Assembly (NCBI GenBank): GCA_020718085.1
Contig: DYDB01000001.1
Coordinates: 47,384-111,383 of the forward strand
DNA length: 64,000 nucleotides
Reading direction: 5' to 3'
Source: Micavibrio sp.
Lineage (GTDB): Bacteria; Patescibacteriota; Minisyncoccia; Moranbacterales; GCA-2747515
Positions 10,250-45,787 of the stretch are shown piece after piece (the stretch's first letter is position 1; each line of letters starts with the position of its first letter). The position numbers were made by a program, and so were the translations under genes. The notes below the pieces were generated by a model. That model was not told where the DNA came from and made no database searches. It saw only the letters and a program-made list of their open reading frames with translations.

Positions 10250-10261
10250 GCGCCGGTAACA

Positions 10262-22951: not shown

Positions 22952-23019
22952 CAATACAACCAAGAGAGCGGATGTGGCCGATTACTGTAAAGTGTCGGCT
23001 TTATCTGTAAAAGGCATAT

Positions 23020-23092
23020 GCCTAGATAGCTCAGTCGGTAGAGCACATCCATGGTAAGGATGAGGTCGCCGGTTCAATCCCGGCTCTAGGCT
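23020..23092 (+). tRNA. tRNA-Thr (anticodon GGU)
   Basis: Acceptor gcctaga/tctaggc. D-arm gctcagtcggtagagc. Anticodon loop atggtaa (GGU). T-loop ttcaatc. Confidence 0.85.
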
Positions 23093-23173
23093 CAGAATAA
23101 TAGTGTATAATAGAGAACATGGGAGTCTGTTGTGCGAGGACAGGCGGGCCTGTCCACCGGAGTTAAAACGTAG

Positions 23174-23244
23174 GCGGGTGTAGTTTAGTGGTAGAACGAG
23201 GGTCTCCAAAACCCTTAGTGGGAGTTCGATTCTCTCCACCCGTG
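23174..23244 (+). tRNA. tRNA-Trp (anticodon CCA)
   Basis: Anticodon stem-loop agggt/ctccaaa/accct (CCA). T-arm gggag/ttcgatt/ctctc. The acceptor pairs with a G1-U72 wobble. Exact ends are +/-2 nt. Confidence 0.75.
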
Positions 23245-23251
23245 CATACAA

Positions 23252-23368: not shown

Positions 23369-23998
23369 ATGCAGAGTAATCTGAAAAAAATATTAGATGA
23401 TTTTAAGGACAAGCGATCTATTTATGAAGAGTTCTGTTTGGCGATGTATAAATTCTTGGATAGCATGCTTGTTATTGATGGTTGCAAATACCAGATATTT
23501 TATAGGATCAAAGAATTTGACAAACTTGAAGAAAAAATTATACGTAAAGAAAAAGAGGGGATCGTCTATACGAACCTTGAAGAATTGGAAGATTTGGCGG
23601 GTCTTCGAATCCTATTTTATCTCGAGTCAGATAAGGATAAATTTGTGAAAAAATTACTATCGGAATTGACGGGAGATGTTACTATTAAAAATCATAAAAA
23701 ATTATCCGGCTATGAAGCAACACACATCATTACAAGTTTTGGAGAAAAAAGGATCAGTTTGAGCGAATACAGCAAGTTTGAGGGATTGAAATGTGAAATA
23801 CAATTGACATCCATCTTGCATCATGCGTGGTCGGAAATTGAACATGACATGATCTACAAAGACACTTTGGGAGTCAAGAATAGTAAAGTGAAAAGTGTTT
23901 TTATAAAAAAAGAGATGAAAAAGATCCTATCAAATTATCTCATTAAGGCTTCCACTGAGCTGGACAATCTGGTCAAAAAAATTAAAAAAAGGAAATAA
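23369..23998 (+). CDS. RelA/SpoT-domain nucleotidyltransferase (small alarmone synthetase-like; possible toxSAS-type toxin)
   Basis: Motifs EDLAGLRILF, GYEATHII and EIQLTSILHHAWSEIEHDMIYK align with the RelQ/RelP synthetase motifs (DIAGLRI, GYRSxHL, EIQIRTxxMxxWAxxEHxxxYK). 209 aa. Lies in an AT-rich, codon-shifted island. Confidence 0.7.
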   Translation: MQSNLKKILDDFKDKRSIYEEFCLAMYKFLDSMLVIDGCKYQIFYRIKEFDKLEEKIIRKEKEGIVYTNLEELEDLAGLRILFYLESDKDKFVKKLLSELTGDVTIKNHKKLSGYEATHIITSFGEKRISLSEYSKFEGLKCEIQLTSILHHAWSEIEHDMIYKDTLGVKNSKVKSVFIKKEMKKILSNYLIKASTELDNLVKKIKKRK

Positions 23999-24119
23999 AA
24001 TGGCTTCACCCGTGCAGATAGGAATAGAACCAAAATTTGAGGCTAGGGAAGCCTTTTTTTGGTTTCAATCTTTTAGGATAAGAATGGAAGAGTGGAAATT
24101 TTTATGATAGAGTTTAATT

Positions 24120-25220
24120 ATGAAAGCAAAAGTTCATAAAATTGAAGACTTTGGTTATGATCCATTTTTTGAATCCAATCGTGTAAAACTCGGACTGGAT
24201 GTTTTTCATGTGGCTCGAGTGATCTCTGAACAAAAGGGAATTTATAAGGTTAAAAATGCCAATGGTGAATATTTGGCAAAAATAACCGGAAAACAAATTT
24301 TTAAAGCCTCTTCTAAGGAAGATTATCCGTCTGTGGGTGATTGGGTGGCAATTTCTGAATTGGAAGTGCATAAAGCAATGATCCGTAGTATATTACCGAG
24401 GAGAACAGTGATGAAGAGGAAATGCAGTGGTAAAAAAAATGAAACCCAAATAATAGCAACGAATATTGACGTGGCCTTTGTCATTGAATCAGTTGATAGG
24501 GACTATAATTTGAATCGATTTGAAAGATATTTTGCCATAGCGAATGATGGGGGCATAAAACCAGCTATCATATTGAACAAAGTAGATCTGATCTCCAAAG
24601 AAGAATTATATGCAAAAATTTCCCAAATAAAAGACAGATTCAAAGATGTTGAAGTCATTCCAACTAGCGCTGTGACGGATGAAGATCTGGATGAATTAAG
24701 GGGATATATAAAAAAGGGTAAAACGTATTGTTTTCTAGGTTCCTCCGGAGTGGGAAAATCTTCTTTGATAAATAAACTGATTGGTAGTGGGAGTGAGATA
24801 AAAACTGGAGACGTCGGTTTACGTTCCGGGAGAGGAAAGCATGTAACTACAACGAGAGAAATGTATTTTTTGAAAAATGGTGGCATTGTAATAGATACTC
24901 CCGGGATGCGAGAGGTGGGGATGACTGACACAACTGCTGGTGTAGATAATTTATTCGATGAGATCACAACTCTCGCCAAGAAATGTAAATTTATCGACTG
25001 TGATCATATTCATGAACCTAAATGCGAAGTTTTAGTTGCGCTAAAAGCAGGCCTGTTGGACAAAGAAAAGTATGCCAATTACATTCGATTAAAAAAAGAG
25101 TCTGAACATTATGAGATGACTCAACGTGAAAAAAAAGAAAAAGATCGAAAATTTGGTAAATTTATGAAAAATGCCAAGAAGGATTTGAAAAAGTATAAAA
25201 ACAAAAATTATAGTGTGTAA
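24120..25220 (+). CDS. rsgA: RsgA/YjeQ-type circularly permuted GTPase (ribosome small-subunit biogenesis GTPase family)
   Basis: N-terminal OB-like region. G4 NKVDL precedes G1 GSSGVGKSSLIN. GRGKHVTTTRE and IDTPGMRE motifs. C-terminal zinc finger CKFIDCDHIHEPKC. Lys-rich tail. Confidence 0.85.
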   Translation: MKAKVHKIEDFGYDPFFESNRVKLGLDVFHVARVISEQKGIYKVKNANGEYLAKITGKQIFKASSKEDYPSVGDWVAISELEVHKAMIRSILPRRTVMKRKCSGKKNETQIIATNIDVAFVIESVDRDYNLNRFERYFAIANDGGIKPAIILNKVDLISKEELYAKISQIKDRFKDVEVIPTSAVTDEDLDELRGYIKKGKTYCFLGSSGVGKSSLINKLIGSGSEIKTGDVGLRSGRGKHVTTTREMYFLKNGGIVIDTPGMREVGMTDTTAGVDNLFDEITTLAKKCKFIDCDHIHEPKCEVLVALKAGLLDKEKYANYIRLKKESEHYEMTQREKKEKDRKFGKFMKNAKKDLKKYKNKNYSV

Positions 25221-25346
25221 TCTGTAATTGGCGGTGGATTCATCGAAGATGGCTCTCGATAAATAGTTAATTCCCACTAAGTCTAAGTTTGCATTTTCTT
25301 AACAAAATGCTACTTTTAGAATAGCTTAATATTTAGATACAACCTA

Positions 25347-25661
25347 ATGTTCTGGCGAAAGCACAAAAATATACATTTAATTTCAGCAGTCTTTCTTGGT
25401 TGTTTATTTTTGTCTGGGTGTGACGATTCAAACAATCGACTAGAGGAAATTGAACAAGCAAGAGAAATGGGCTACGAGATGGGAATGGAGGAGGGTTATA
25501 GTGTTGGTATAGATGATGTAAAATCCGGACTTGTGTCAATTGAGGATACTGAGATTTGCTTGGATTACTATGAATTAGGCTATCAAGATGCTATCACTGA
25601 TATCGAGAAATACGGAATAACAAGAGTAAAGAATGAAGATTTGCCAAGAGAAGTTCAATAA
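25347..25661 (+). CDS. Small acidic lipoprotein, hypothetical
   Basis: Signal peptide with lipobox FLSGC, followed by an acidic E/G/Y-rich 80-aa region. Confidence 0.45.
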   Translation: MFWRKHKNIHLISAVFLGCLFLSGCDDSNNRLEEIEQAREMGYEMGMEEGYSVGIDDVKSGLVSIEDTEICLDYYELGYQDAITDIEKYGITRVKNEDLPREVQ

Positions 25662-25745
25662 TGATTATGAATGCAAAAAATTGTTAAAAATATTTTTGAC
25701 TAAATTTATTTTTTTAGTAAAATCCTGTTGAGTATTTGAAAAAAT

Positions 25746-26384
25746 ATGACCGAAGAAGAATATAAGAATAGATTTGAAAAGTTATATCAACTTCTAACAA
25801 GAGCTCATTTGTGTTTTTTTGTTTGGAAGGGTCTTAAAAATGTAAAATATCAACCTCAATTTGACAGAGATAAAAATTTTTGGAGTGCTGTCGTTCCTTC
25901 CCTAGAGTCATCGTGGCTTCAATCTTTAGCTAATATTTACGAAGAATCAGATTACAGCAGAAAGGATAAAATTATATCGGTATATTCATTGATAAATAAT
26001 CAAAAAGATGTAGAAAGAAAGGTGAGAGCGGAAGTTATTATTAATCAGAATCAATCCATAATTAAAAACATTTCAATTCTTAGGAATAATCAGTTAGCTC
26101 ATTATAATGCCAATCATTTATTAAACCCAAAAGAGTTATTGGAAAAATTTCCTGTGAAATATGGGGAAGTGGAAAGATTGCTAGAAATAACTGAAGAACT
26201 ATTACGTTGTCTGCACCCCGAAAACAATCATAGTTTTTCGTTTGAGGGATTTGATAAGGAATCACAACGGGATTCAACTTTAATTATGGATAGGATTGAG
26301 TATTATCTAAAGCAGGAAAAGAAACACTATGAGAAAATGAAAGATGAAAATAAGTATGTTCATTTTCCGCCTCAAAAAGACTGA
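25746..26384 (+). CDS. Hypothetical protein with an Rx5H (HEPN-like) motif; candidate Abi-type protein
   Basis: 212-aa all-helical-looking ORF. LRNNQLAHYNANH contains R-x5-H in a predicted helix, as in HEPN RNase families (Rx4-6H). No other motifs. Confidence 0.5.
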   Translation: MTEEEYKNRFEKLYQLLTRAHLCFFVWKGLKNVKYQPQFDRDKNFWSAVVPSLESSWLQSLANIYEESDYSRKDKIISVYSLINNQKDVERKVRAEVIINQNQSIIKNISILRNNQLAHYNANHLLNPKELLEKFPVKYGEVERLLEITEELLRCLHPENNHSFSFEGFDKESQRDSTLIMDRIEYYLKQEKKHYEKMKDENKYVHFPPQKD

Positions 26385-26539
26385 TTATTATCAAATTTTT
26401 TCTTAAATCGGATGTGTATACATTCGTTTTTTTCATAAAAATATCCCTAAAAACATTTATCACATCGTACAGATACAAAAAAGAGATTTTATGCAATCTC
26501 TTTTCGTGCTGAGAATTATGATATAATCACAGAATTCAT

Positions 26540-27109
26540 ATGCAAAACACTATCGAAAATAAAACTATTCAAAAAGAAGATTGGTCTGGAAAAAAACTAG
26601 GATCATTTGAAATTTCTGACTGTACATTCAACGGATGTGATTTTACGGAAACTGATTTTTCCGGAACGAAGTTCATTGATTGTATCTTCGATGGATGTAA
26701 TTTCTCGAACTCAAAAATATTAAATTGCAGTTTTTGCGACGTTACTTTTAAGGAATGTAAAATAAGTGGTGTGGTCTTTGGTGAAATAAATAAATTCTTA
26801 CTTTCTTGGAAATTTTATGATTGTGCCATAGATCTTTGCAGTTTCAGTATGTTGGATATCAAAAACTCCGAGTTTATTGCATGTGAGATCTACGAAACTG
26901 ATTTTGTGAACACTGATCTTAGTGAGTCTAATTTCTCACAATCTGATCTGAGGGGGAGTAAATTTCAAGATACAAATTTAAGTAAAGCTAATTTTGTGGG
27001 AGCAATAAATTATTTTATAGATCCTACAGCCAATAAGATCACAAAAGCGAGATTTTCATCACCGGAAGTGTTAGCTCTGCTTGCGGGTTTTGATATAACC
27101 ATTGAATAG
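26540..27109 (+). CDS. Pentapeptide-repeat protein (Qnr/MfpA-like fold)
   Basis: Tandem A(D/N)(L/F)xx pentapeptides throughout (CTFNGCDFTETDFSGTKFIDCIFDGCNFSNSKILNCSF...SDLRGSKFQDTNLSKANFVGA). Confidence 0.75.
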   Translation: MQNTIENKTIQKEDWSGKKLGSFEISDCTFNGCDFTETDFSGTKFIDCIFDGCNFSNSKILNCSFCDVTFKECKISGVVFGEINKFLLSWKFYDCAIDLCSFSMLDIKNSEFIACEIYETDFVNTDLSESNFSQSDLRGSKFQDTNLSKANFVGAINYFIDPTANKITKARFSSPEVLALLAGFDITIE

Positions 27110-34870: not shown

Positions 34871-35983
34871 TTAGGATCCTTTCAGTTCACATATGAGCTC
34901 GTGCGTGGATACAATGCGATCCACACGATGTGCGTTGGTCCCAACGGTAAAGAGAGGTTGTTCATCTTTGGCATATCCTGCTGAGGATAAAAGCCCGTTG
35001 CAAATACAAAAATTTTGCTGCGAATTTTCTTTTGCTGCACAGATCGAGAATGATCCCTCAGCATCTTTTTGCAGTACATAACCTCGATTACAAAAAGGTC
35101 TGCGAAATTTGCCAAATGCGTACATGGGCGCATTGGTCAGTGTGCGAAAAGGCATGCCGCTTGGAGATCCTGGAGGACATGTTCTATTGTGACATACAAT
35201 AATTTCTTCCGGTGTGCATTCTATGACAGCTTGTTTGTACAAAAGGGAGGCGCCACTCTCTTCCGTTACGAGAAAACGTGTTCCCATTTGCACGCCGTCT
35301 GCACCGCGAGTGATCCAATCACAGATATCTTGATGCGTATAAATACCGCCAGCAACAATTACGGGAAAATCACCATTTGTCATGGCAAATTCCTTAATTG
35401 GTGGAAATATCGCATCAAGTTGATGTTCTGATCTCGTGAGGTCTTCGTATGCAAATCCGAGATGTCCGCCTGCCAATGGACCCTCTACAACAACAGCATC
35501 CGGTCTACGACCTTTTTTTGCCCAGCGTGCGCAGATCAGTCGGAGTGCGCGTACAGACGATACGATTGGTATGAGTGCAATATCTGCAGTGGTGCCGACA
35601 ACTTGTGGCAGTTGCAGAGGGAGTCCCGCGCCACAAATGATCATATCGGCCTTTGCATCAACTGCACCACGTACACTTGCGTCAAAATCTCGCGCAAGAT
35701 ATACCATGATATTGACACCAATGCCACCGTGACCCTGAGAAAGTATGCGTGCATTTTGCACTTCAAGGATCATGGCGTCGTAAGCATTGTATCGTTTTTT
35801 CAGATCATGTGATATGAGAAAATCCAAACATGCGCTCGAGAGAATGCCGATACAACCTTCATGTGCGACAGTTCCTGCAAGCATGTCGCGAGACACACCG
35901 ACACCCATGCCGCCTTGAATGATGGGAGCTTCGTACGTGCGGTCACGAATTGTTAATTTTGGCAAGATCATATGCACCTCCAT
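34871..35983 (-). CDS. Nitronate monooxygenase / FabK-like FMN oxidoreductase (NMO family)
   Basis: TIRDRTYEAPIIQGGMGVGVS...HEGCIGILSS fits the NMO TIM-barrel family. C-terminal Cys-containing extension. Confidence 0.65.
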   Translation of the reverse strand: MEVHMILPKLTIRDRTYEAPIIQGGMGVGVSRDMLAGTVAHEGCIGILSSACLDFLISHDLKKRYNAYDAMILEVQNARILSQGHGGIGVNIMVYLARDFDASVRGAVDAKADMIICGAGLPLQLPQVVGTTADIALIPIVSSVRALRLICARWAKKGRRPDAVVVEGPLAGGHLGFAYEDLTRSEHQLDAIFPPIKEFAMTNGDFPVIVAGGIYTHQDICDWITRGADGVQMGTRFLVTEESGASLLYKQAVIECTPEEIIVCHNRTCPPGSPSGMPFRTLTNAPMYAFGKFRRPFCNRGYVLQKDAEGSFSICAAKENSQQNFCICNGLLSSAGYAKDEQPLFTVGTNAHRVDRIVSTHELICELKGS

Positions 35984-36141
35984 GCATGTTGTGAAAAATG
36001 TTATATTAATTTATTAAAGAAACGTTGTGTAACACCAGTATAGAGAAGTTTTATTTTTTTACAATGGGATGGCACGCGTAGTAATTTTGTGATATACTTT
36101 TACACAGAAATATGATACGTGATATGAAAAAGTGATATTTT

Positions 36142-36804
36142 TTGACTAAAACAAAAATATTTATGGATCAACTTAAGGATAAGGGTTTTGTGGTTGCGAT
36201 GCTTGTAATGCTCTTTGGCAGCATAGGATATGCATACTGGCATTTTGTGATCGATAAAAATTATACACTTGTATATCATGCGGATTGCGATCCGACCATG
36301 GAGGTGTGTTATGTATGGGAGTGTGATCCTGAGGCGATCGATGAGGAGGAAAAGTGTACGGGTGATCCGGATGAGGATATATGGTACTACAAGCACTTGG
36401 AACGTTTGGCAAAAAATGTTCCAGAGTGCAAATCTGATGATGAGAATTGCGATGCTTTTGTGTGTGAAATAGGGGAAGAAGGTTGCGCTGAAGTGATGTG
36501 TACCAAAGAACTTGCGGAGATTGATGAGGTAGTATGCAGTGATCCTAATGCATATAATATTGCGCATCCTGAGGAATTGGAGGAAGATGAAGAAGGATCC
36601 TATGAGATGGATGAGGAAGAAATGATGGAAGAAGATGAAGAATCGGCCGATATGGGTGAGGGAGAAGTGGCGGGAGAAGAAGGAGATAGTGAGACAGAAT
36701 TGGAAACAATGGGAGATGGTAGTGGTGGCACAGTGGAAGAAGTAGTCGAAAATAATGAAATGGAAGGCGTCGTTGCGCCGGAAGATGTTGGTGTGGACAC
36801 ATAG
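36142..36804 (+). CDS. Membrane-anchored Cys-rich, highly acidic protein (hypothetical)
   Basis: N-terminal TM, eight Cys in CxxC-like pairs, then an E/D-rich low-complexity tail. Confidence 0.45.
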   Translation: MTKTKIFMDQLKDKGFVVAMLVMLFGSIGYAYWHFVIDKNYTLVYHADCDPTMEVCYVWECDPEAIDEEEKCTGDPDEDIWYYKHLERLAKNVPECKSDDENCDAFVCEIGEEGCAEVMCTKELAEIDEVVCSDPNAYNIAHPEELEEDEEGSYEMDEEEMMEEDEESADMGEGEVAGEEGDSETELETMGDGSGGTVEEVVENNEMEGVVAPEDVGVDT

Positions 36805-36903
36805 TTTTGGCGTGTGTCTTTTTTTATAGGTATAATAAATACGTGAAGTGTTACTGCTGTGTTATAAAAGTGATAAAATGTAAAAAGTAGTTGTAGAAAA
36901 TAT

Positions 36904-38031
36904 ATGTATAACAGTAAACCGGATGGTTTTCATTTTTTATTGGAATTTTTTGGGTGTGATATCAAGCAGATCAATGACATGGATTTTTGGCGCACAGAGC
37001 TCCACGCAGCAATCGAGGGCACGTCCATGGAATCATTGCATGATTTTTTCTTTAAATTCGAACCGCATGGCATTACGGGATATCTTCTTCTTTCTTCTTC
37101 ACATATCTCTATTCACACATGGCCGGAAAACGGGTATGTAGTGTGCGATGTTTTCACCTGCTCTACAGAAGTGGAGACAGAGAAAGCTGTGCAACATCTC
37201 AAGGATCAGATCACACATGATCGCGTAGAGGTAAAGAAGATCCAGCGTGGATTTAAGGTGTCACGCAAAGGTGGTGTAGTGCAAGATGTTGCGCAATGCA
37301 CGCTTGATCGACACTGTGTGAAACTGCCTGTGTATAGCACGGGAAAGAAAATGCCGTTGGATGTATTGCAGTTGATTGTGGAAATTGAAACAGCTGTGCA
37401 GAAGATCTCGATCGTTGATACACTGGAATTTGGGAAGTGCTTGATCATCAACGGAATATTGCATACAGCGGAAAAAGATCATTATCTCTATGACCGTGAG
37501 CTCATTAAGCAATTGCGGTCCAGCGATAAGGACATTCTCATTCTAGGTGGTGGTGATGGCTATGTGGCACGGCGTGTAATATCGGAAAATCCGAATGCAC
37601 AGATCAATGTGGATGTGGTGGACATGGATGTGGAAGTGGTCAAGGCATGTGAACGCTACTTGGGACAAGGTGTCTTTCAACGAAATGAGGCGCGGATCCA
37701 TATTGGAGATGCATTACATTTTCTCAAGATGACACGCAAGAAATATGACGGCATTATATTTGATCTCACAAAAGAACCGATCGGACGTGCAGAGGATGAA
37801 CAATTCATCCAGTTTTATAAAGATTTGTGTGCTTTGGCACATACACATACCAAAGACCAAGGATGGATTGCCATACAAGCAGGCACATCTTCTGTCGTAA
37901 AGAAATATATGGACACGGCAACGGTCATCACATCGATCTTGCATGATACGCGATGGAAAAAAATTGACCGCAGTGATGTCATGATCCCAAGTCATGGGGA
38001 AAATTATGCATTCCTCTTTGCAAAGAAATAA
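36904..38031 (+). CDS. Fusion: pyruvoyl-dependent S-adenosylmethionine decarboxylase (SpeH/class 1b) + spermidine synthase (aminopropyltransferase)
   Basis: N-terminal LLSSSHISIHTWPENGYVVCDVFTC (AdoMetDC proenzyme motif). C-terminal ILILGGGDGYVARRV...IIFDLTK (SpeE). 375 aa. Confidence 0.75.
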   Translation: MYNSKPDGFHFLLEFFGCDIKQINDMDFWRTELHAAIEGTSMESLHDFFFKFEPHGITGYLLLSSSHISIHTWPENGYVVCDVFTCSTEVETEKAVQHLKDQITHDRVEVKKIQRGFKVSRKGGVVQDVAQCTLDRHCVKLPVYSTGKKMPLDVLQLIVEIETAVQKISIVDTLEFGKCLIINGILHTAEKDHYLYDRELIKQLRSSDKDILILGGGDGYVARRVISENPNAQINVDVVDMDVEVVKACERYLGQGVFQRNEARIHIGDALHFLKMTRKKYDGIIFDLTKEPIGRAEDEQFIQFYKDLCALAHTHTKDQGWIAIQAGTSSVVKKYMDTATVITSILHDTRWKKIDRSDVMIPSHGENYAFLFAKK

Positions 38032-38053
38032 GCTTAAATAACTATTCACATAC

Positions 38054-38803
38054 ATGGAAAATATCAACACAGGAGAAAAAAGGGAAGATGTCGTGAAGAT
38101 CACACAACCGATCTATGCAACAGGAGAGCAAATGGAGATCATTGTAAAAGAAAAATTAGCGGAGATGACGTCTGAATTTCAAAAGATCACCTTTGTGGAT
38201 ACAAAAGATTTTGGGCGATGTTTGATCATTGACGATGTGATTCAGACATCAGAAGCAGATCATGAAATTTATGATGCGGAAATGTTAAGTAGAATGAAAC
38301 CAACTGATCGCGATGTTATGATCCTAGGTGGTGGTGATGGATATATCGCTCAAATGGCAATAGCCAAAAATGATCAGGTGCATGTAACGATCGCTGATCT
38401 TGATAGTATGGTGGTGGAGGGATGTAAAAAATATCTCGATCAAAAAGTTTTTGAAGATGAACGGGTAAAATTACACATTGGTGACGCACTTGCGTATATG
38501 CGTGAAAGTGGGCAAGAATATGATGGTGTTGTATGTGATCTGACTGATGCACCGGTGGGCGCCAAAGAACTGGAAGAGTTTGAGAAGTTTTTTGAAGAGG
38601 TGATCATGTTGTCACATAAATGCATACGCAGTGGAGGATGGATGAGCTTTCAATCTGGTGCATCGGAAGTCTCGGAACAATTTATTAATTCTGTCGTTAT
38701 CGTTGAGGCTATTCTCAGGAAATATTTTAGCACTATAGAACGCAGTGACGTCATGATCCCGAGCTATGGAGAAAGTTGTGCATTTCTCTTTGCACAGAAA
38801 TAA
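38054..38803 (+). CDS. Spermidine synthase-like aminopropyltransferase (paralogue of the fused SpeE domain)
   Basis: VMILGGGDGYIAQMA. C-terminal DVMIPSYGESCAFLFAQK matches DVMIPSHGENYAFLFAKK in the upstream gene. Confidence 0.7.
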   Translation: MENINTGEKREDVVKITQPIYATGEQMEIIVKEKLAEMTSEFQKITFVDTKDFGRCLIIDDVIQTSEADHEIYDAEMLSRMKPTDRDVMILGGGDGYIAQMAIAKNDQVHVTIADLDSMVVEGCKKYLDQKVFEDERVKLHIGDALAYMRESGQEYDGVVCDLTDAPVGAKELEEFEKFFEEVIMLSHKCIRSGGWMSFQSGASEVSEQFINSVVIVEAILRKYFSTIERSDVMIPSYGESCAFLFAQK

Positions 38804-38836
38804 TAAACTGATATTAATAATGCACGCATATTTTTC

Positions 38837-40573
38837 ATGAAACGTTCCGCCATACATCTTGCAACGATCAAAAAATATATTCAACCGCAAAAAAATATGT
38901 TTGTGGTGGCATTGGTTTTTGTGTTGATCGAAAATGGTATTCAGTTGATCCTGCCACTTTTCTATGGTAAGTCCGTTGATCTGGTGATCACACAGAAAAG
39001 TTTTTCTATCACTGTTGTTGTGCTCATTGGCAGTTGGTTTGTGTTGAGTCTTGTGAGTGAATGGGCGATGCGTATGCGTGTACGATGGGGTGTGCGCATC
39101 GGATACAGAGTGGGCATAGATATGTTCACGCGATATGTGCGTCACCTGATCCGTTTGCCTCTCTCATTTCATAAGAGTCATAAAACAGGGGAATATATCG
39201 AGCGATTTGATCGCGCGGATGCGTATATGGACCGTGTGATCAATGAGGGAGTGTTGCAAAGTGCGCCACATATTCTCACGTCATTTTTGGCTTTTTGTGT
39301 GATCGTGTGGATCCAGTGGGAATTAGCATTGATCTACTTATTGTTCGTGGCCATATTTGTCATCATAACGATCAACAAAACAAAGCCAATTGTTGCATAC
39401 AACGAGGATATCAGTGAAAAATTGGAAGACATTTATGGAGATGTCTTTGAGCGTACGCCAAATGTTTTTGCGATCAAGGCGCATGGTGCTGAAGAAGATG
39501 AATATGTACAGAATCAAGAAAAATATGAAAAAGTCTACCACTTATTCGATCGGTACACGGGTTTTCTCATGAAATTGCAATTCTGGCAACACGTCATTTT
39601 TTCCACCGGTTTTCTTTTGCTTTTTCTCACGGGATTATATTTTATCACGCGTGACATGGTGACGATCGGACAGTTCATCATGCTTTTGGCATATATCAAT
39701 ATGGCGTCAGCGTCCATTCAAACACTTGGAAGTAATTATAAGGATCTGCAAGAAGGTTTGGTGACGATTGCACGTGCCGAAGAAATTTATCGCGTACCTG
39801 AGGAAAAATATCTCAACCTGCACGCTCAGTCGATGGATCGTTGTGAAGGAAAGATTGAATTTGATCATGTGTATTTTTCATACAAAGATCAAGAGATTCT
39901 CAAAGACGTCAATTTTACGATAAATCCGGGGCAGATGGTGGCGATCGTGGGGAAAAGCGGACAAGGGAAAACAACATTAGTGGATATGATCCCGCGTTTT
40001 CTCATTCCTACGGATGGTGCGGTTCGTGTTGATGGTGTTGATGTGCGTGATATCAAACTGGATGATCTGCGCAAACAAATTGCAATTGTCTCACAAGAGA
40101 ATGGACTCTTTCACGACTCGATCAAAAATAATATCGTTTATGCGCGCAAAAGCGCACGACCGGATGAGGTATTGCGTGTAGCGCGGCAATCGCATTGTCA
40201 TGAGTTTATCCATAAATTACCAAAAAATTATGACACGCTGATTGGTGATCGCGGTGCAAAACTTTCTGCAGGTCAGAGACAACGTTTGTCGATCGCACGT
40301 GCGATCTTGCGTGATCCGCGCATTCTCATTCTCGATGAAGCAACGAGCGCACTGGACAGTGAATCGGAAAAATATATTCAAAACGCAATGGAAGAAGTCA
40401 TGAAAGGACGCACAACAATCGTGATCGCACATCGTCTGAGCACGATCCGCAAAGCAGACCTGATCCTTGTAGTAGAAAATGGACGCATCATAGAGCGTGG
40501 TGATCATGAAGAGCTTATGGACCATGGAGGAGTATATAAAAAACTACATGAATTACAGCATACAGGTGTGTAG
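38837..40573 (+). CDS. ABC exporter, fused permease-ATPase (MsbA/ABCB type)
   Basis: Six-TM N-terminal domain. Walker A GKSGQGKTT, signature LSAGQRQRLSIARAIL, Walker B ILILDEATSALD. Confidence 0.85.
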   Translation: MKRSAIHLATIKKYIQPQKNMFVVALVFVLIENGIQLILPLFYGKSVDLVITQKSFSITVVVLIGSWFVLSLVSEWAMRMRVRWGVRIGYRVGIDMFTRYVRHLIRLPLSFHKSHKTGEYIERFDRADAYMDRVINEGVLQSAPHILTSFLAFCVIVWIQWELALIYLLFVAIFVIITINKTKPIVAYNEDISEKLEDIYGDVFERTPNVFAIKAHGAEEDEYVQNQEKYEKVYHLFDRYTGFLMKLQFWQHVIFSTGFLLLFLTGLYFITRDMVTIGQFIMLLAYINMASASIQTLGSNYKDLQEGLVTIARAEEIYRVPEEKYLNLHAQSMDRCEGKIEFDHVYFSYKDQEILKDVNFTINPGQMVAIVGKSGQGKTTLVDMIPRFLIPTDGAVRVDGVDVRDIKLDDLRKQIAIVSQENGLFHDSIKNNIVYARKSARPDEVLRVARQSHCHEFIHKLPKNYDTLIGDRGAKLSAGQRQRLSIARAILRDPRILILDEATSALDSESEKYIQNAMEEVMKGRTTIVIAHRLSTIRKADLILVVENGRIIERGDHEELMDHGGVYKKLHELQHTGV

Positions 40574-40791
40574 GTTTGTATCATGGCCATTGTAAGAGAA
40601 AAGCATTGTAAAACCCCTATTTTCAAGGGGTTTTTTGTTAAGATTGTGAAAAACCGCATAAATAAAGGGTTTTTTGGATATAAATATTGACAAAAATGTA
40701 ATAATGGTGTATAATAACAATTCAATCGTTTATTTAAAAATTTAATATATAAACCCAAATATCGCCTTCACAAAAAGGCAAAGGAGGCGAT

Positions 40792-41730
40792 ATGCCTACA
40801 GTAATTGATGTCGCAATTGAACTTTTCATTGCCACAACCATGGTGTTGTGTATGATGAGACTGATCCAAAAATGGTCATGGGACAAAGTGATCATGACCA
40901 TGTATTTGGTTTTGATTGCGGTTGTTTTCGGTGACTATGTCACCATCGAATCTATCAAAAATGTGTTGCCAATAATTCTTGATTTTTTGAAAGATTTTGG
41001 TATTCGCATCCTTGCGATCGTTCTCATGATCGCATGTGCTTTACAGATCGCACACCTGGTTGGCATCTTTTTCAAAAGTTGCGTCTGGCAGTTTTTTGTA
41101 AAAGCTTTTCAGGTTACTCTGCAAGTCATCGCTGACATTCATCCATGGGCTGCAAAAGTGGTCGGTGGCATGATGTGGGTAGGCGGTTTGGTCAAAGTTG
41201 CTCTCAGTCATTTTTATGATATCGAGGGTGATGATGAGGCAGAGGAAGTTGTTGATAAAGTACGCGAGCTACATCTTATGAGTTTGTTGTACGATATCAT
41301 CGACTATTGGGCTGCGGGACTCTGTGCTCTGCTGGTGTCATATCTGGCAGAGTATCAATTCACGTATGCTCAAAAATCAGGAATCGTCTGGATTGTGATC
41401 GATGTTCCCTTTGCGTTGAGTGCTTTATACGGATGCTTTAAATCCGGTAAAGATCTCACGTGGGGTGAGGCACACAGACGAGCTCATGATGGCGTATACG
41501 CATACAACCGTATCGCAGGATGGATCTACAGGGTCGTCCAGCATGTGGTTGGCACCATTTGGGATGGACCGGAGCAGATTGCAATATTTTATGCGCAAGA
41601 ACTCAGGACCAAAACCAAGATGGTTATGCTCGCCATCGCCCTGAGTATTCCTCAAGCTGCATTTTGGGCTTGGGCGTACACACTTGGAAACGATGCGATT
41701 ATCGTTCGTTTTCTCGAGTGGCTCGGTTAG
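40792..41730 (+). CDS. Hypothetical polytopic membrane protein
   Basis: RBS aaaggagg. Multiple TM helices. No motifs. Confidence 0.5.
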   Translation: MPTVIDVAIELFIATTMVLCMMRLIQKWSWDKVIMTMYLVLIAVVFGDYVTIESIKNVLPIILDFLKDFGIRILAIVLMIACALQIAHLVGIFFKSCVWQFFVKAFQVTLQVIADIHPWAAKVVGGMMWVGGLVKVALSHFYDIEGDDEAEEVVDKVRELHLMSLLYDIIDYWAAGLCALLVSYLAEYQFTYAQKSGIVWIVIDVPFALSALYGCFKSGKDLTWGEAHRRAHDGVYAYNRIAGWIYRVVQHVVGTIWDGPEQIAIFYAQELRTKTKMVMLAIALSIPQAAFWAWAYTLGNDAIIVRFLEWLG

Positions 41731-41746
41731 ATTGATAGAGGCGTTT

Positions 41747-41780
41747 GTTTTATAAAAAACAGACGCCTCTTTACTTTTTT
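41747..41780 (+). terminator. Rho-independent terminator
   Basis: agaggcgt ... acgcctct stem followed by ttactttttt. Confidence 0.7.
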
Positions 41781-41841
41781 AGATAACATAAAAAACAAAA
41801 ATATGTTATACTGTTAAAAAGTATTAAGAATATTTTTATAT

Positions 41842-42372
41842 ATGCAAAGAAGAACATATTCTTGGATGAATCCATCAGTCGAAGTGCGAGAAACATTAGA
41901 GACGGGCAGAGGGATTTTTGCAATAAAAAATATTAGTAAGGGAGATTTGATCTCTGTGTTTGGTGGGTATGTGATAACACGTGCTGAGGAGCTTGAGCTG
42001 CCTGATGAATTTAATGACGAAGGTGTTCAAATTAGTGAGGATTTAATTTTGGGCATAAAAAGTGAAGCGGATCTTGAAGATGCGAGCTATATTAATCACA
42101 GTTGTAATCCAAACGCTGGATATAATGGACAAATATTTCTTGTGGCGATGCATGATATCAAAAATGGTGAGGAGATTACATTTGATTATGCGATGTGCTT
42201 ATATCAGTCAGAAAATGAAAAAAAGTATTCTTTTAAATGTTTCTGTGGAGCATTAAATTGTCGGAAAATTATTACAGACAATGATTGGAAAATTCCTGAG
42301 TTACAAAAAAAATATGATGGCTATTTCCAATGGTTTTTACAAAAGAGGATTAATGATAAGAATGATAACTAG
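41842..42372 (+). CDS. SET-domain protein (putative protein lysine methyltransferase)
   Basis: GRGIFA...NHSCNPNAGY...EEITFDY. Post-SET cysteines CFCGALNC. 176 aa. AT-rich, codon-shifted region. Confidence 0.8.
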   Translation: MQRRTYSWMNPSVEVRETLETGRGIFAIKNISKGDLISVFGGYVITRAEELELPDEFNDEGVQISEDLILGIKSEADLEDASYINHSCNPNAGYNGQIFLVAMHDIKNGEEITFDYAMCLYQSENEKKYSFKCFCGALNCRKIITDNDWKIPELQKKYDGYFQWFLQKRINDKNDN

Positions 42373-42378
42373 TTGTGT

Positions 42379-43134
42379 ATGAATGTCTATACGAACATCG
42401 ATGATGCTTCTTTGGAAATAAAAAACAGATGGAATAATGATGGTTTGAAAAAAAAAGTTTTGGAATATTTTGATGGAGATTTGCCTAAAACATTTTGTGA
42501 GCCACGTGCTGTACTAAGTCGCAATATTGCCACTCCGGATATTGAATGTGTGCATTTTTTTAACTTGGCAAAAAAGATTGGATTATTGCCAATTATTTGT
42601 GAAGGTGTTGGTGATAAATTTTCATCTGCGAGTTCTGATAAAGTTGGGCTTGTAAAATTAAATTTTTTTGACGGTTATGATAAAAACCATCAGTTGTTAA
42701 GACATCATAAAAAAATTATTGACATACCTTCAAATGATGGTAAAAAGTTCAATGTAATTAATACATTATGGGGTGAAAATCTAGTCGATTTTCACCATCG
42801 AATATTAAAAGAATATTTACATGAAAGTGTTGACTTATTTGATGATTTTGACTGGTTTCATAAAATTGGCATGAAAACAACAATTGGTGAATATTACAAA
42901 AATTTTTTTGTTTTTTTTGTATGTCATGGGGTATTATTTGAAAATTTTGTCACTGATGCAGAGGAATTGGAATTCTTTGATAAAATAGTTCAACCAGCAT
43001 TTGAATATATCGAAAGTTATTTTGGTGTAAAACCTCTCATTGTGGAACTTGCTCCTCATGATCAAGCTAATAACCCATATTGGTGGTGCTATCCGTCAGA
43101 TGTAGAAAAATATATTTTAAAAGTAGATATGTAA
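42379..43134 (+). CDS. Hypothetical protein (no recognisable domain) immediately downstream of the SET gene
   Basis: ATG 7 nt after the SET stop. About 251 aa, soluble, His-rich patches (HHKK, FHHRI). Confidence 0.5.
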   Translation: MNVYTNIDDASLEIKNRWNNDGLKKKVLEYFDGDLPKTFCEPRAVLSRNIATPDIECVHFFNLAKKIGLLPIICEGVGDKFSSASSDKVGLVKLNFFDGYDKNHQLLRHHKKIIDIPSNDGKKFNVINTLWGENLVDFHHRILKEYLHESVDLFDDFDWFHKIGMKTTIGEYYKNFFVFFVCHGVLFENFVTDAEELEFFDKIVQPAFEYIESYFGVKPLIVELAPHDQANNPYWWCYPSDVEKYILKVDM

Positions 43135-43144
43135 AATAAAAAAT

Positions 43145-44791
43145 ATGGACTATAATTATATTACGAATATCAAGTCTTGTCACATTGCTATTCCACACCT
43201 CTTACATTATTCTCATATCCCAACCATTTGCATAGCAATGTTTTTTGCGATCTTTATTCTTACAAAGAATCGCACTCTTGTTTCCTATGTATTTTTTTTC
43301 ATGGTCTCGAGTTTCTCTTTGTGGGTTATGGGAAGCTACATAACTTGGATTGGAACAGATGGCTCATATATAATGTTTTCCTGGGCGACGCTAGCCATCT
43401 TTGATGTTTTGATGTATCTCTCAAGTGTATATTTTGTGTACCTTTTTATTGATGGAAAAGATATTTCTTATTTTAAGAAAGTGATTTTATTGATTCTTTT
43501 TATCCCAGTATTATTTCTTTTCACAACATCAATAAACTTAAAAAGTTTTAATTTAATGGAATGTGAAGCAACAGAGAGTTATTTTAACAGCTATGTTTAC
43601 TTTGTGGAAATCATCTCAGTGTTATGGATAATCTTTATTGTTATTAACCGATACTTTCGATCTACATCTGAATTGCGCCGTAAAATAGCTTTCTTGTCCG
43701 TTGGATTAGTCTTCTTTTTAGCCGTGTATTTTCTTCTTGGTTTATTGGCTGCACAAGATATCCTTCCATATTCTTTTGAATTTTATGCACTTTTTGGCAT
43801 GGATGTTTTTATAGCAGTAATGGCATATTTAATTGTGCAATATGGTGCAATGGACATCAAGCTTGCGCGGGCACAAGCTCTTGTATGGTCTCTCATTTTA
43901 CTCATCGGTGCGCAGTTTTTCTTTATTCGCAATCCGACCAATCAAGTGCTTAACAGTATCGCATTTGTTTTGGTGTGTTTTATCGGGTATGGTGTGGTGA
44001 AGAGCGTGAGGCGTGAAGAGCAGCAGAATGACAGGCTCATTCATTTTTCCAAGGAATTGACGCGTGCCAATGCAGAGTTAAAACGTTTGGATAGTGCAAA
44101 GTCGGAGTTTATTTCAATTGCGTCGCATCAATTGCGCACACCGCTTACGGCGATCAAAGGATATATCTCACTGATCTTGGAGGGGGCATATGGACAAAAT
44201 GCAGACAAAACCGATGATGCGCTCAACAAAATTTTCTTGGCAAATGAGCGTCTCATTCAACTGGTAGAAGACATGCTCAATCTTACGCGTATTGAATCGG
44301 GGAGATTGGATTATCACTTGGAAGATAATGTGCAAGTGGAAGATATCTTGTCTGAACTCAAGGATATGTTTATTTTGCGTACACAGGATAAAAATTTGGA
44401 CTTTGTCATTGATACGGGAGACACGCAATTACCGCCGATTAAAGCGGATAAATCCAAATTGCGTGAAGTAATTTCAAACTTGATCGACAATGCGATCAAA
44501 TATACCAAGGAAGGCTTCATTCATGTTTCAGCACAGAAAGATGGCAGTATCGTACGCGTCACGATCGCTGACTCCGGCATGGGCATCTCCGAAGAATCAC
44601 TCAAAACACTTTTTGCCAAATTTTCTCGTGGAACCGATTCGACCAAGGTATACACCGACGGTTCGGGCTTGGGACTCTATGTGGGTAAAAATTTGATCGA
44701 ATCACAGGGTGGGCACATCTACGCAGAATCCGATGGTGTAAACAAAGGCTCTCGCTTCATCGTAGAAATGCCAATTGCAAAAGGAAATTAG
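43145..44791 (+). CDS. Sensor histidine kinase (polytopic membrane sensor, orphan)
   Basis: About 6-7 N-terminal TM helices. H-box FISIASHQLRTPL, N-box ISNLIDNAIKYT, G1 DSGMGI, G2 GSGLGLYV. No response regulator nearby. Confidence 0.85.
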   Translation: MDYNYITNIKSCHIAIPHLLHYSHIPTICIAMFFAIFILTKNRTLVSYVFFFMVSSFSLWVMGSYITWIGTDGSYIMFSWATLAIFDVLMYLSSVYFVYLFIDGKDISYFKKVILLILFIPVLFLFTTSINLKSFNLMECEATESYFNSYVYFVEIISVLWIIFIVINRYFRSTSELRRKIAFLSVGLVFFLAVYFLLGLLAAQDILPYSFEFYALFGMDVFIAVMAYLIVQYGAMDIKLARAQALVWSLILLIGAQFFFIRNPTNQVLNSIAFVLVCFIGYGVVKSVRREEQQNDRLIHFSKELTRANAELKRLDSAKSEFISIASHQLRTPLTAIKGYISLILEGAYGQNADKTDDALNKIFLANERLIQLVEDMLNLTRIESGRLDYHLEDNVQVEDILSELKDMFILRTQDKNLDFVIDTGDTQLPPIKADKSKLREVISNLIDNAIKYTKEGFIHVSAQKDGSIVRVTIADSGMGISEESLKTLFAKFSRGTDSTKVYTDGSGLGLYVGKNLIESQGGHIYAESDGVNKGSRFIVEMPIAKGN

Positions 44792-44829
44792 TCTCAATAG
44801 GTAAATAAGAATGGAGAAATAACAATATT

Positions 44830-44856
44830 ATCCCGCACTTCTTGCGGGATTTTTCC
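44830..44856 (+). terminator. Rho-independent terminator
   Basis: tcccgca-cttctt-gcggga followed by ttttt. Confidence 0.7.
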
Positions 44857-44941
44857 TTATGGTCTATAGTTTATGTTCTGAAATTTATTCAGGATGATAT
44901 ATAATATCCGCGATCTCTTTTGAAATGCTACCAAGGTGAAT

Positions 44942-44970
44942 TTGACAAAAAATGGAAAAAGCGATACTAT
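44942..44970 (+). promoter_or_regulatory. Sigma70-type promoter upstream of secE-nusG (TTGACA-17-TACTAT)
   Basis: TTGACA at 44942-44947, a 17-nt spacer, and TACTAT at 44965-44970. Confidence 0.45.
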
Positions 44971-45016
44971 GGTGATGTATCTAGAGCCCGAGGGGGCTTT
45001 TTAAAATCCACGAAAT

Positions 45017-45202
45017 ATGGAGAAAATCACACAATTTTTGCGGGAAGCGTATGGTGAATTGAGACGCGTTTCATGGCCATCACGCGAACAAACGATCCAG
45101 TACACAACTCTTGTGGTTGTGATCAGTATTGGTATAGCGCTCTTTTTGGGTCTTTTGGACTATTTGTTCAGTGACATCATAAAGAATGTGATCATCAAAT
45201 AA
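45017..45202 (+). CDS. secE: Preprotein translocase subunit SecE
   Basis: 61 aa with a single C-terminal TM. Position upstream of nusG-rplK-rplA. FLREAYGELRRVSWPSREQ motif. Confidence 0.8.
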   Translation: MEKITQFLREAYGELRRVSWPSREQTIQYTTLVVVISIGIALFLGLLDYLFSDIIKNVIIK

Positions 45203-45241
45203 AAAATTTTTAAGTAATTTGTATCGTAATATTTAGCATAT

Positions 45242-45787
45242 ATGGCAAAACAAACGCAACATCACGGTATAGCGTGGTATGTTCTTCATACATATTCCGG
45301 TTACGAGGATAATGTGGCCCGCAATTTGCGACAACGTATCGAGTCCATGGACATGCAAGATTTTATCTTTGATGTGATCGTGCCGGTGGAAAAAAAGATC
45401 AAGATCAAAAACAGCAAACGTGTAACAGTTGAAGAAAAGATCTATCCCGGATACGTTTTGGTTCAGATGGTGGTAACAGATGCATCATGGTATGTGGTAC
45501 GTAATACGCCAAATGTGACTGGATTTATCGGATTGGGCACAACGCCAACGCCGGTAGATGCAAATGAAATTCTCTCGATCAAGAAAAAAATGGGACAAAA
45601 CGAACCGCGATATCGTATTGACGTGAAAAAGGGAGAGAGTATAAAGATCGTCGATGGTCCGTTCAAAGATTTTGATGGTGAGGTAAAAGAAATTGATGAG
45701 GCAAAAGGAAAAGTGAAGGTACTCGTTCTCGTATTTGGTCGCGAAACACCGGTAGAATTGGACTTCCTCCAGATCAAAAAAATATAA
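45242..45787 (+). CDS. nusG: Transcription termination/antitermination factor NusG
   Basis: NGN domain WYVLHTYSGYE. KOW domain KIVDGPFKDFDGEV. Confidence 0.9.
   Translation: MAKQTQHHGIAWYVLHTYSGYEDNVARNLRQRIESMDMQDFIFDVIVPVEKKIKIKNSKRVTVEEKIYPGYVLVQMVVTDASWYVVRNTPNVTGFIGLGTTPTPVDANEILSIKKKMGQNEPRYRIDVKKGESIKIVDGPFKDFDGEVKEIDEAKGKVKVLVLVFGRETPVELDFLQIKKI

Follow-up and report, generated by a model that had tools for sequence, protein, structure and literature searches.

SET domains are generally viewed as chromatin enzymes and, when they occur in bacteria, as effectors directed at a host. Two earlier reports place secreted nucleomodulins among the characterised bacterial SET proteins (PMC3980110, PMC2904774), and the Burkholderia protein BurB (PDB 9l4t), which S-methylates free methionine, shows that the substrate of a bacterial SET enzyme can be a small molecule (PMC12542666). 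In diatoms, proteins combining S-adenosylmethionine decarboxylase (AdoMetDC) and aminopropyltransferase (APT) with a histone-N-methyltransferase-type domain are, according to one proposal, the makers of long-chain polyamines and also methylate them at nitrogen (Michael 2011 FEBS Lett 585:2627, as quoted in PMC3820600), and the diatom genes have been described as bacterially derived. The locus described here, found in a 64-kb stretch of DNA (the window) from Micavibrio sp., likewise brings a SET-type methyltransferase together with polyamine genes, and represents a module that is widespread yet undescribed. The source is a groundwater ultra-small (CPR) bacterium.

Three open reading frames were confirmed on the forward strand, encoding a SET methyltransferase of 176 residues (41842-42372), a cytoplasmic protein of 251 residues from an uncurated family, hereafter X (42379-43134), and a sensor histidine kinase (HK) of 548 residues (43145-44791). 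The genes are co-oriented and form a single operon bounded by terminators, since the ATG of X at 42379 lies 6 nt past the SET stop codon, the kinase starts 10 nt past the TAA of X, and hairpins followed by T-runs are found on both sides, where the earlier note had also placed terminators. SET and X are moreover in the same frame and parted by a single TAG (42370-42372). The 5' hairpin (15-bp stem; 41737-41770, or 41737-41780 with its T-run) ends the gene of a preceding membrane protein and the 3' hairpin (8-bp GC-rich stem; 44830-44850, or 44830-44860 with its T-run) precedes secE-nusG, both on the forward strand; such terminator-like sites number 6 in the region against 2.7 +/- 1.4 in shuffled sequence. 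A promoter-like site of the form ATAACA-18-TATACT with an extended TG (41783-41812, forward strand) lies 30 nt 5' of the SET start codon, but it constitutes weak evidence, since it is a consensus match only and 25 such sites were found in the region where 19.2 are expected.

The assignment of the first gene and the reading of its motifs stood up to a profile search, with Pfam SET (PF00856) matching at E=2.1e-15 and 57.5 bits against a curated cutoff of 22.4. The protein carries the motifs G22-x-G24, N85-H-S-C88-N-P-N, E110-E-I-T-F-D-Y116 and, after the SET domain, C133-x-C135-x4-C140, and those for SAM binding, catalysis (Y116) and post-SET zinc binding are invariant in the 36 relatives compared. 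By sequence it is a methyltransferase, with a predicted SAM-dependent methyl transfer to a lysine or other nucleophile. It aligns over the full SET and post-SET regions with MLL1 (E=7e-12) and shares the zinc cluster CxCx4C and every SAM-binding and catalytic motif with the MLL/Trithorax, G9a and NSD type enzymes. It differs from these, however, in being a small stand-alone bacterial protein with a conserved C-terminal extension specific to its subfamily (D148-W149, Y158, F162-Q163), in lacking chromatin-reader domains, and in being accompanied by a kinase, a protein modelled with a HUP fold and polyamine enzymes rather than by chromatin genes. BurB resembles it in being a small (~180 aa) SET protein from a bacterial biosynthetic cluster and matches it with E=6e-6, although by sequence the protein-lysine methyltransferases stand nearer to the window SET; the substrate contacts of BurB are main-chain and therefore offer no diagnostic motif for comparison (PMC12542666).

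The tightly linked second gene had been noted to lack a recognisable domain, and X indeed has no match in Pfam, NCBIfam, PHROGs, PADLOC or PDB sequences. Its family comprises about 970 clusters, and X is the founder of a new conserved protein family for which neither Pfam nor NCBIfam has a model. The predicted structure is confident (pLDDT 96.2) and suggests a divergent HUP/Rossmann-like fold of the class-I-synthetase type, but the similarity is weak, and a Foldseek search with the model returned no significant match. Sixteen residues are invariant across phyla, among them R17, W18, D79, K88, H139, Y173, G184, F187, E188 and N189, and these invariants, together with the high pLDDT and the HUP-like fold of the model, give X the look of an enzyme or of a protein that binds specifically. 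It has no detectable sequence relation to the HUP-class Rossmann-like domains that do without canonical adenylation motifs, namely those of BshC (4wbd), the cyclodipeptide synthases and the catalytic cores of class I LysRS and TyrRS, and anticodon-binding and coiled-coil domains are absent. Furthermore, none of 120 family members has HIGH (HxGH) after strand 1 or KMSKS after strand 5 at the expected positions, which instead carry the consensus 'TP[DN]xE' and 'PLIVPLxP'.

Kinases controlled by accessory proteins are known, as in PII-NtrB and in the USP/HUP domain of KdpD, and the present kinase resembles them in that a small cytoplasmic protein, its putative partner, is encoded directly upstream. 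Its C-terminal part contains HisKA (1.5e-17, 63.8 bits against 26.9), with the H-box 'SHQLRTPL' visible in the translation, and HATPase_c (2.3e-23, 83.2 bits against 26.4). The N-terminal part is polytopic as previously described, but hydropathy gives about nine hydrophobic segments between residues 22 and 285 rather than the six or seven transmembrane helices claimed. The arrangement is that of the HisKA_7TM kinases (PF16927), whose model is matched weakly but over nearly its full length (positions 6-222 of 224, E=0.0056); the score of 17.0 bits is below the curated cutoff of 28.6, and the kinase further differs in its number of segments and in its new partner family. No receiver domain is encoded within the 64-kb window, as the earlier note had observed, but the view of the kinase as an orphan is not supported in the functional sense, since no other conserved partner accompanies X more often and the kinases of relatives are directly followed by REC or REC-REC regulators.

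About 4 kb (3.8 kb) upstream of SET, and on the same strand, the window encodes a class 1b AdoMetDC::aminopropyltransferase fusion (36904-38031), a known bacterial fusion type for which spermine synthesis has been shown experimentally elsewhere (PMC12803844), and a second aminopropyltransferase of the spermidine-synthase family (38054-38803). They are followed by an ABC exporter with fused TMD and NBD (38837-40573), the homologues of which occur in 9 X-anchored loci, an association weaker than that of the other parts, and by mem312, a polytopic membrane protein of 312 residues without a Pfam match (40792-41730). Its family ('mem177/mem312') recurs in other phyla as a neighbour of X or SET (L007, L010, L039-41, L073, L089, L091, L169), and mem312 probably belongs to the same functional set as SET-X-HK, though it is separately transcribed. 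A 213-residue homologue of a Cys-rich family with one N-terminal transmembrane segment is encoded some 5 kb upstream (36163-36804), and this family adjoins X in 25-36 loci. All of these genes lie on the forward strand. A terminator and three genes do however separate the polyamine genes from SET in the window, which speaks against an action on polyamines, as do the closer similarity of SET to protein-lysine methyltransferases and the fact that N-methylated polyamines from these lineages were not reported in the literature searched.

In relatives, tight operons of the SET subfamily and of X contain AdoMetDC, aminopropyltransferase, deoxyhypusine-synthase-like (DHS-like), saccharopine-dehydrogenase-like (SDH-like), PurD-like ATP-grasp and GNAT genes together with membrane proteins or exporters, also in free-living phyla such as Nitrospirota and Desulfobacterota. 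One locus has overlapping AdoMetDC, APT, SDH-like and SET genes (L146; APT 286 bits against a speE cutoff of 260), similar operons are found in L148, L161, L126 and L137 (the last BpsA-like), and these five couple AdoMetDC and aminopropyltransferase to a SET-type methyltransferase as the window does. L152 pairs a DHS-like gene with SET, a Nitrospirota locus reads AdoMetDC-ATP-grasp-X-SET-SET-mem312 family (L169), ATP-grasp/GNAT-SET occurs in L089, L091 and L168, and AdoMetDC-SpdSyn-X in Bacteroidota and Desulfobacterota. Within the sampled flanks AdoMetDC is found at 8 of the 80 loci of X and at 6 of the 80 loci of SET, and polyamine genes in about 11-14% of loci, a lower bound because many contigs are short; the association is in other words recurrent but not universal. 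The membrane companions comprise mem203 (38 loci), the Cys-rich protein (36), EamA (15) and the mem312 family.

Of ~77 X-anchored loci, 52 contain the kinase, which stands at position +1 in 44. In CPR bacteria it lies downstream of X in 32 of the 38 loci with enough flank (84%; median gap 17 nt), but in non-CPR phyla it accompanies X in only 3 of 15. Among the SET neighbourhoods searched it occurs in 17 of 80, concentrated among the closest SET relatives, of which it is likewise the commonest conserved partner, be it as SET-HK with X missing, as X-SET-HK or in divergent orders. Covalent fusions of the two soluble proteins are found as SET-X in L022 and as X-SET in L051, P0266, P0269, P0295, P0360, P0376, P0384-P0386, P0389 and P0390, with a further X/SET fusion in L110, and GNAT-X fusions are found in P0243, P0282, P0246 and L005. 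The SET/X fusions, in both orders, and the GNAT/X fusions belong to independent lineages. In L164 the gene of a fusion protein ends 5 nt upstream of HK-RR-RR, its kinase also matching HisKA_7TM weakly. Chance alone might bring three unrelated genes together in gene-dense CPR genomes, where intergenic gaps are short throughout, but this is scarcely conceivable and is refuted by an adjacency found again in dozens of genomes across different phyla and by independent fusions in both orders.

That the SET subfamily is found in polyamine operons and fused to an unannotated family points to an endogenous role, probably on a small molecule, and because its relatives adjoin genes of polyamine synthesis, SET probably acts on polyamine-like amines of the cell itself rather than on host histones. 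The chances are in our view about even that SET-X-HK is an endogenous module for modification of an amine, which we infer to be probably a polyamine, coupled to the membrane kinase. SET would use SAM to N-methylate the primary amine ending an aminobutyl or aminopropyl chain, which is a chemical mimic of the lysine side chain and may be supplied by the polyamine genes upstream. X, with the conserved polar and aromatic pocket of its model, would bind or process that amine, or else an adenosyl cofactor, acting beside whichever N-modifying enzyme is there, SET or GNAT, and the membrane proteins might export the product or anchor it. The 7TM-type kinase of CPR bacteria would sense a related envelope or cation state and signal to a REC-type regulator whose gene would lie elsewhere in the genome. 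A fuller version is only tentatively proposed and more probably fails in some part than holds: that the SET subfamily is a polyamine (aminobutyl/aminopropyl-amine) N-methyltransferase for which the end of a polyamine takes the place of lysine, that X is a new enzyme or receptor of the HUP fold that handles those molecules and has repeatedly been fused to N-methylating and N-acetylating enzymes, that in CPR bacteria SET and X are coupled to a 7TM histidine kinase of their own in a system that modifies and senses polyamines for the cell envelope, and that the bacterial source of the diatom methyltransferase domain could lie here. The likeness to the diatom machinery is one of gene content, AdoMetDC, aminopropyltransferase and a SET-type N-methyltransferase being genomically coupled in both, and the diatom function is itself a proposal. 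Here SET either has its own gene or is joined to X, and an APT-SET fusion is absent from the loci examined. The SET-X-HK setting may nevertheless be a bacterial counterpart of that proposed machinery, and the SET-X loci offer directly testable candidates for bacterial polyamine N-methylation. X in turn represents a new family with a confident structure model and a clear genomic signature upstream of a 7TM kinase, in ultra-small bacteria, very few of whose signalling systems have any functional handle.

A regulatory protein-lysine methylation within a two-component pathway is a less probable explanation. SET would here methylate a lysine of X, of the kinase or of its response regulator and so serve adaptation or tuning, in a way loosely comparable to CheR acting on chemoreceptors and GlnD acting on PII, and X would be a PII-like cytoplasmic co-sensor docking on the kinase, with the GNAT fusions acetylating the same lysine. 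The greatest similarity of SET to protein-lysine methyltransferases, its direct adjacency to the kinase even without X (8 loci), the X-SET and GNAT-X fusions, the near-obligate X-HK pairing in CPR bacteria and the response regulator genes downstream in relatives agree with this notion, and X has a single invariant lysine, K88. However, K88 is invariant with or without SET, neither the kinases nor the X proteins linked to SET have a conserved lysine that is specific to them, X mostly dispenses with the kinase outside CPR bacteria, and SET closes polyamine operons lacking both kinase and X (L146, L148, L152, L161). The model of the X-SET fusion predicts no fixed interface (pTM 0.59, disordered linker), which counts against the amine-modification reading as well. 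Cyclodipeptide synthases lack HIGH and KMSKS just as X does, and it might accordingly be imagined that X is class-I-synthetase-like, as MshC, BshC or these synthases, and that with its ATP-grasp or GNAT partners it joins an amino acid or a polyamine to a lipid or to a component of the cell wall, with SET then methylating the added amine, the membrane proteins serving as flippase or acceptor machinery and the kinase monitoring surface charge. This is improbable as it stands, though it is a specialisation of the amine-modification reading and compatible with it. The constant membrane-protein companions, a membrane-domain::X fusion (P0310) and an MprF-type LPG_synthase_C gene beside EamA-SET-CysTM-HK (L167) fit well, but the last neighbour was found once, tRNA or ATP binding by X is hypothetical and the fold similarity is weak.

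The AT-rich block of the earlier note suggests instead a horizontally acquired islet, with a SET effector acting on host histones or on chromatin or nucleoid proteins of host or cell and with X and the kinase incidental, and this is disfavoured and very improbable. CPR bacteria are often episymbionts, but the hosts of these lineages are not known to be eukaryotic. Secreted nucleomodulins are, as mentioned, among the characterised bacterial SET proteins, and the SET and X families are spread patchily over many phyla, the SET gene being no core gene of typical composition. However, hydropathy finds no hydrophobic signal or transmembrane segment in SET or X, and the window SET, unlike Legionella LegAS4/RomA and Chlamydia NUE, has no secretion signal, ankyrin or other targeting domain and scores 18.3 bits with the NCBIfam LegAS4/AnkI model (NF043024; cutoff 550). 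It is furthermore operonic with, and in relatives fused to, cytoplasmic partners, its linkage to kinase and polyamine enzymes is conserved also in free-living Nitrospirota and Desulfobacterota, and no nucleoid-protein gene recurs near X- or SET-anchored loci. The claimed bias in composition and AGA and ATA codons is real for SET (GC 0.343, GC3 0.294) and X (GC 0.300, GC3 0.206), where AGA makes up 5 of 12 Arg codons against a background of 9.6% (p=0.004), but not for the kinase, which resembles the rest of the window (GC 0.387, GC3 0.412, AGA 1/21). A single foreign block, whether genomic island or mobile cargo, is not supported, as only SET and X are atypical, the nearest tRNA is 18 kb away, meaningful flanking repeats are absent, X matches no plasmids or phages, and the order mem312-SET-X-HK-nusG is the same in a related Moraniibacteriota MAG (L007). 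The AT-richness of SET and X is in fact family-wide, the GC of X averaging 5.3 points below that of its own locus in 60 other genomes and that of SET falling below its locus in 9 of 9.

The three open reading frames lie on the forward strand at the positions originally assigned to them and form a tight unit between terminator-like hairpins at 41737-41770 and 44830-44850, in keeping with the terminators called in the earlier note. The first (41842-42372, 176 aa) is confirmed as a SET-domain protein by its Pfam score (57.5 bits, the cutoff being 22.4) and by an alignment of 36 relatives without variation in the GxG, NHSCNPN and EEITFDY motifs or the CxCx4C cysteines, and its alignment with MLL1 spans SET and post-SET regions alike (E=7e-12). 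The second, here called X (42379-43134, 251 aa), starts 6 nt past the TAG stop of SET in the same frame, and the third (43145-44791, 548 aa), starting 10 nt past the stop of X, is a histidine kinase (HK) in which HisKA and HATPase_c domains follow a polytopic N-terminus; its similarity to Pfam HisKA_7TM is weak but full-length, and its hydrophobic segments number about nine rather than the six or seven transmembrane helices first proposed. The trio represents a conserved and previously undescribed module, which brings together a new family of predicted HUP fold, a polyamine-associated SET subfamily and a polytopic histidine kinase.

X itself has no match in Pfam, NCBIfam, PHROGs, PADLOC or the PDB sequences, a profile of its family finds nothing in the PDB either, and every family member carries the annotation "hypothetical". 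The family comprises 219 clusters at 90% identity and 969 clusters at 50% identity (E<=1e-3, 1.84 billion representatives searched) and is found in genomes of at least 229 species from several CPR lineages, Nitrospirota, Desulfobacterota, Bdellovibrionota, Melainabacteria, Verrucomicrobiota and Bacteroidota, with tandem paralogues being common among its loci. A Foldseek search of the PDB with the AlphaFold2 model (pLDDT 96.2, pTM 0.92) gave no significant match, but the top matches belong to one superfamily, HUP, and the HIGH and KMSKS signatures are present at the expected positions in none of 120 family members examined; X is thus a new and divergent family with a putative HUP fold. In a set of 54 diverse members 16 residues never vary, among them R17, W18, D79, K88, H139, Y173, G184, F187, E188 and N189, and the polar and aromatic character of the conserved positions suggests that X has a specific pocket. 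Since X is devoid of hydrophobic segments, it is expected to be cytoplasmic.

The dominant neighbour of X is a full-length homologue of the window kinase, found in 52 of about 77 loci (80 X-anchored loci sampled) and immediately 3' of X in 44. When only loci with at least 2.5 kb downstream of X are counted, the kinase is downstream of X in 32 of 38 CPR loci as opposed to 3 of 15 non-CPR loci, and the median gap between X and the kinase is 17 nt. Genes recurring upstream of X on the same strand encode a membrane protein of about 200 aa (38 loci), a single-pass Cys-rich protein (36 loci; homologue in the window at 36163-36804), an EamA transporter (15 loci) and the mem177/mem312 membrane protein family, whose window member (40792-41730) directly precedes SET. 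The kinase had been described as an orphan, and this holds within the window, where no receiver domain is found over the whole 64 kb, but not for its relatives, some of which have a response regulator directly after the kinase, either REC-REC (by Pfam) or single REC. Genes beyond kinase and regulator were considered as clues to a regulon, but are AspRS-like and MreB-like upon sequence inspection, apparently housekeeping and thus uninformative. Genes for tRNA synthetases of class Ib (TrpRS/TyrRS type) and for AspRS-like proteins turn up repeatedly after the kinase or regulator (L070 and four other X-anchored loci, and L166 and L167, where Pfam assigns tRNA-synt_1b). This may be no more than CPR synteny, but a curious point is that the predicted fold of X is class-I-synthetase-like too. 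In the transmembrane sensor region of the kinase (43145-44044), C12, H24, W68, Y96, K112, C140 and Y150 are at least 90% conserved in the kinase family, and these residues, two cysteines among them, are candidate ligand-binding or disulfide positions.

SET is a less constant companion: of the 80 X-anchored loci, only about 13 have it at a distance of 6 kb or less from X. Conversely, when the 80 metagenome-contig relatives closest to the window SET serve as anchors, 15 of the loci contain X and 17 the kinase, the linked SETs concentrating at or above about 49% identity to the window SET. The genes stand in orders such as X-SET-HK, SET-HK lacking X and divergent ones, and the kinase is therefore a hub to which SET and X each link. 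SET and X are moreover joined in single reading frames, as SET-X in a Saccharibacteria locus (L022) and as X-SET in a Peribacteraceae locus (L051), in at least ten additional clusters and in L110, as well as in L164, where the X-SET fusion lies 5 nt 5' of a HisKA_7TM kinase gene and two REC genes come after the kinase. The in-frame arrangement in the window resembles the L022 fusion broken in two. Gene calling divides the L164 kinase (7422-9288) into two genes that overlap, one for the 7TM part (209 aa) and one for the catalytic part (429 aa); the kinase is either truly split or carries a frameshift. X is also fused to a GNAT acetyltransferase (P0243, P0282, P0246, L005), to a membrane domain that is elsewhere its upstream neighbour (P0310) and to a Cys-rich domain found elsewhere between X and SET (P0248, L088); the idea that this C-terminal domain of P0248 is a FliB/YkgJ-type lysine methylase found no support in Pfam or the PDB.

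The suggestion that the block is foreign rested on its composition, which is indeed atypical for SET (GC 0.343, GC3 0.294) and X (GC 0.300, GC3 0.206), where AGA accounts for 5 of 12 arginine codons against a background of 9.6% (p=0.004), but the AGA/ATA bias is confined to these two genes and the kinase is compositionally native. X lies on average 5.3 points below its surroundings in GC (n=60 genomes) and SET is lower than its surroundings in nine of nine genomes, and since both are thus AT-richer in nearly all carriers, the signal characterises the gene families rather than the locus. Furthermore, a Candidatus Moraniibacteriota MAG (L007) has the matching order mem312-SET-X-HK-nusG-L11-L1, with protein identities to the window of 57% (mem312), 68% (SET), 46% (X) and 66% (HK), no tRNA gene lies within 18 kb of the window locus, and neither flanking repeats nor plasmid or phage homologues of X were found, so that a foreign origin is unsupported. 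The L007 locus also contains a decayed, frameshifted second X copy (1984-2638; 34.5% identity to the window X) between SET and the intact X (45.7%), which indicates turnover of tandem X paralogues. The window sequence is also present in groundwater metagenome assemblies (ERR628383; GCA_017973895.1).

A functional context is provided by the genes upstream of SET on the same strand, namely a class 1b fusion of S-adenosylmethionine decarboxylase (AdoMetDC) and aminopropyltransferase (APT) at 36904-38031 (TIGR03330, 108 bits against a cutoff of 75.65), followed by a second APT paralogue (38054-38803), and an ABC exporter gene. Eight more loci, belonging to unrelated phyla, have AdoMetDC beside X, among them AdoMetDC-SpdSyn-X in one Pedobacter and one Geobacteraceae MAG and AdoMetDC::APT-X-X-HK in L008. 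AdoMetDC is normally a single-copy gene, and assuming this and about ten genes sampled per locus, our rough estimate is that about one co-occurrence would be expected by chance in 160 loci, as compared with the 14 observed. In SET-anchored loci SET closes tight operons as the last gene, as in AdoMetDC-APT-SDH-like-SET (L146, SDH being saccharopine dehydrogenase; the APT exceeds the curated speE cutoff with 286 against 260 bits), the similar operons of L148, L161 and L126, AdoMetDC-BpsA-like-...-SET (L137), deoxyhypusine/homospermidine-synthase-like-SET (L152) and PurD-like ATP-grasp + GNAT-SET(-HK) (L089, L091, L168), and a Nitrospirota contig (L169) carries AdoMetDC-ATP-grasp-X-SET-SET-mem312 family, the kinase being absent. 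The ATP-grasp neighbour is not housekeeping PurD, as it scores 99-126 bits against a cutoff of 288 and leaves the N-terminal part of the model unmatched. Fusions of AdoMetDC and APT are a known bacterial type, experimentally shown to make spermine (PMC12803844). Neither APT domain of the window reaches the speE equivalog cutoffs, and the product may be spermidine, spermine or a polyamine that is longer or branched. In L167 an MprF-type aminoacyl-phosphatidylglycerol synthase C-terminal domain (PF09924; 4103-5014) lies directly 5' of EamA-SET-CysTM-HK, a single occurrence that hints at a membrane-lipid amine link.

The partners thus fall into polyamine builders (AdoMetDC, APTs, deoxyhypusine-synthase-like and SDH-like proteins), putative amine-directed modifiers (the SET N-methyltransferase, the GNAT N-acetyltransferase and the PurD-like amine-carboxylate ligase) and membrane proteins or exporters. 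Polyamines end in an aminobutyl or aminopropyl group that mimics a lysine side chain, and action of a SET active site on this group is chemically plausible. SET-type N-methylation of polyamines has a published precedent in the form of a proposal for diatoms (PMC3820600), and BurB is a bacterial SET enzyme able to act on a small molecule (PMC12542666). The BurB substrate residues were considered as a discriminator for the SET substrate, but their contacts are main-chain and hence unusable. In the literature searched nothing relevant was found on SET domains in CPR/Patescibacteria or on SET-type bacterial polyamine methyltransferases. Given the three partner groups, the lysine mimicry and the two precedents, we favour an endogenous module for modification of an amine, probably a polyamine, wired in CPR to a 7TM-type kinase, and give this reading about an even chance, the substrate of SET being inferred from gene context. 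The main alternative, that SET places a regulatory methyl mark on a lysine of X, the kinase or its regulator, seems rather unlikely; it is weakened by the fact that no lysine is conserved solely in SET-linked kinases or SET-linked X proteins, by the AlphaFold2 model of an X-SET fusion, which has a disordered linker and no fixed interface (pTM 0.59) and is either uninformative or negative, and by the presence of the SET subfamily in polyamine operons devoid of X and kinase. This subfamily is strongly associated with the polyamine pathway, and the proposal that SET is an effector acting on host histones or chromatin is unsupported.

Elsewhere in the window, a search of 35500-45500 for riboswitches and leaders gave nothing at gathering score, the best Rfam match being the gammaproteobacterial rimP leader (34.8 bits against 47) at 40577-40676, where two tandem hairpin-like repeats of 28 nt, 71% alike, downstream of the ABC gene are probably terminators. 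A second low-GC island (23369-27109, GC 0.31-0.36) directly follows four tRNA genes (Thr, Tyr, Thr, Trp; 22682-23245). Its products are a small alarmone-synthetase-like protein of the RelA/SpoT type, the GTPase RsgA, an abortive-infection protein (HEPN_AbiU2) and a pentapeptide-repeat protein, and the genes for MarR and a PAS-PAS-GGDEF cyclase come next; insertion of a defence or stress islet beside the tRNAs is a possible explanation. The most atypical composition in the window is that of a run of reading frames at 8864-13181 (GC 0.48-0.53 against 0.41 for the window), the N-termini of which resemble signal peptides or lipoprotein signals.
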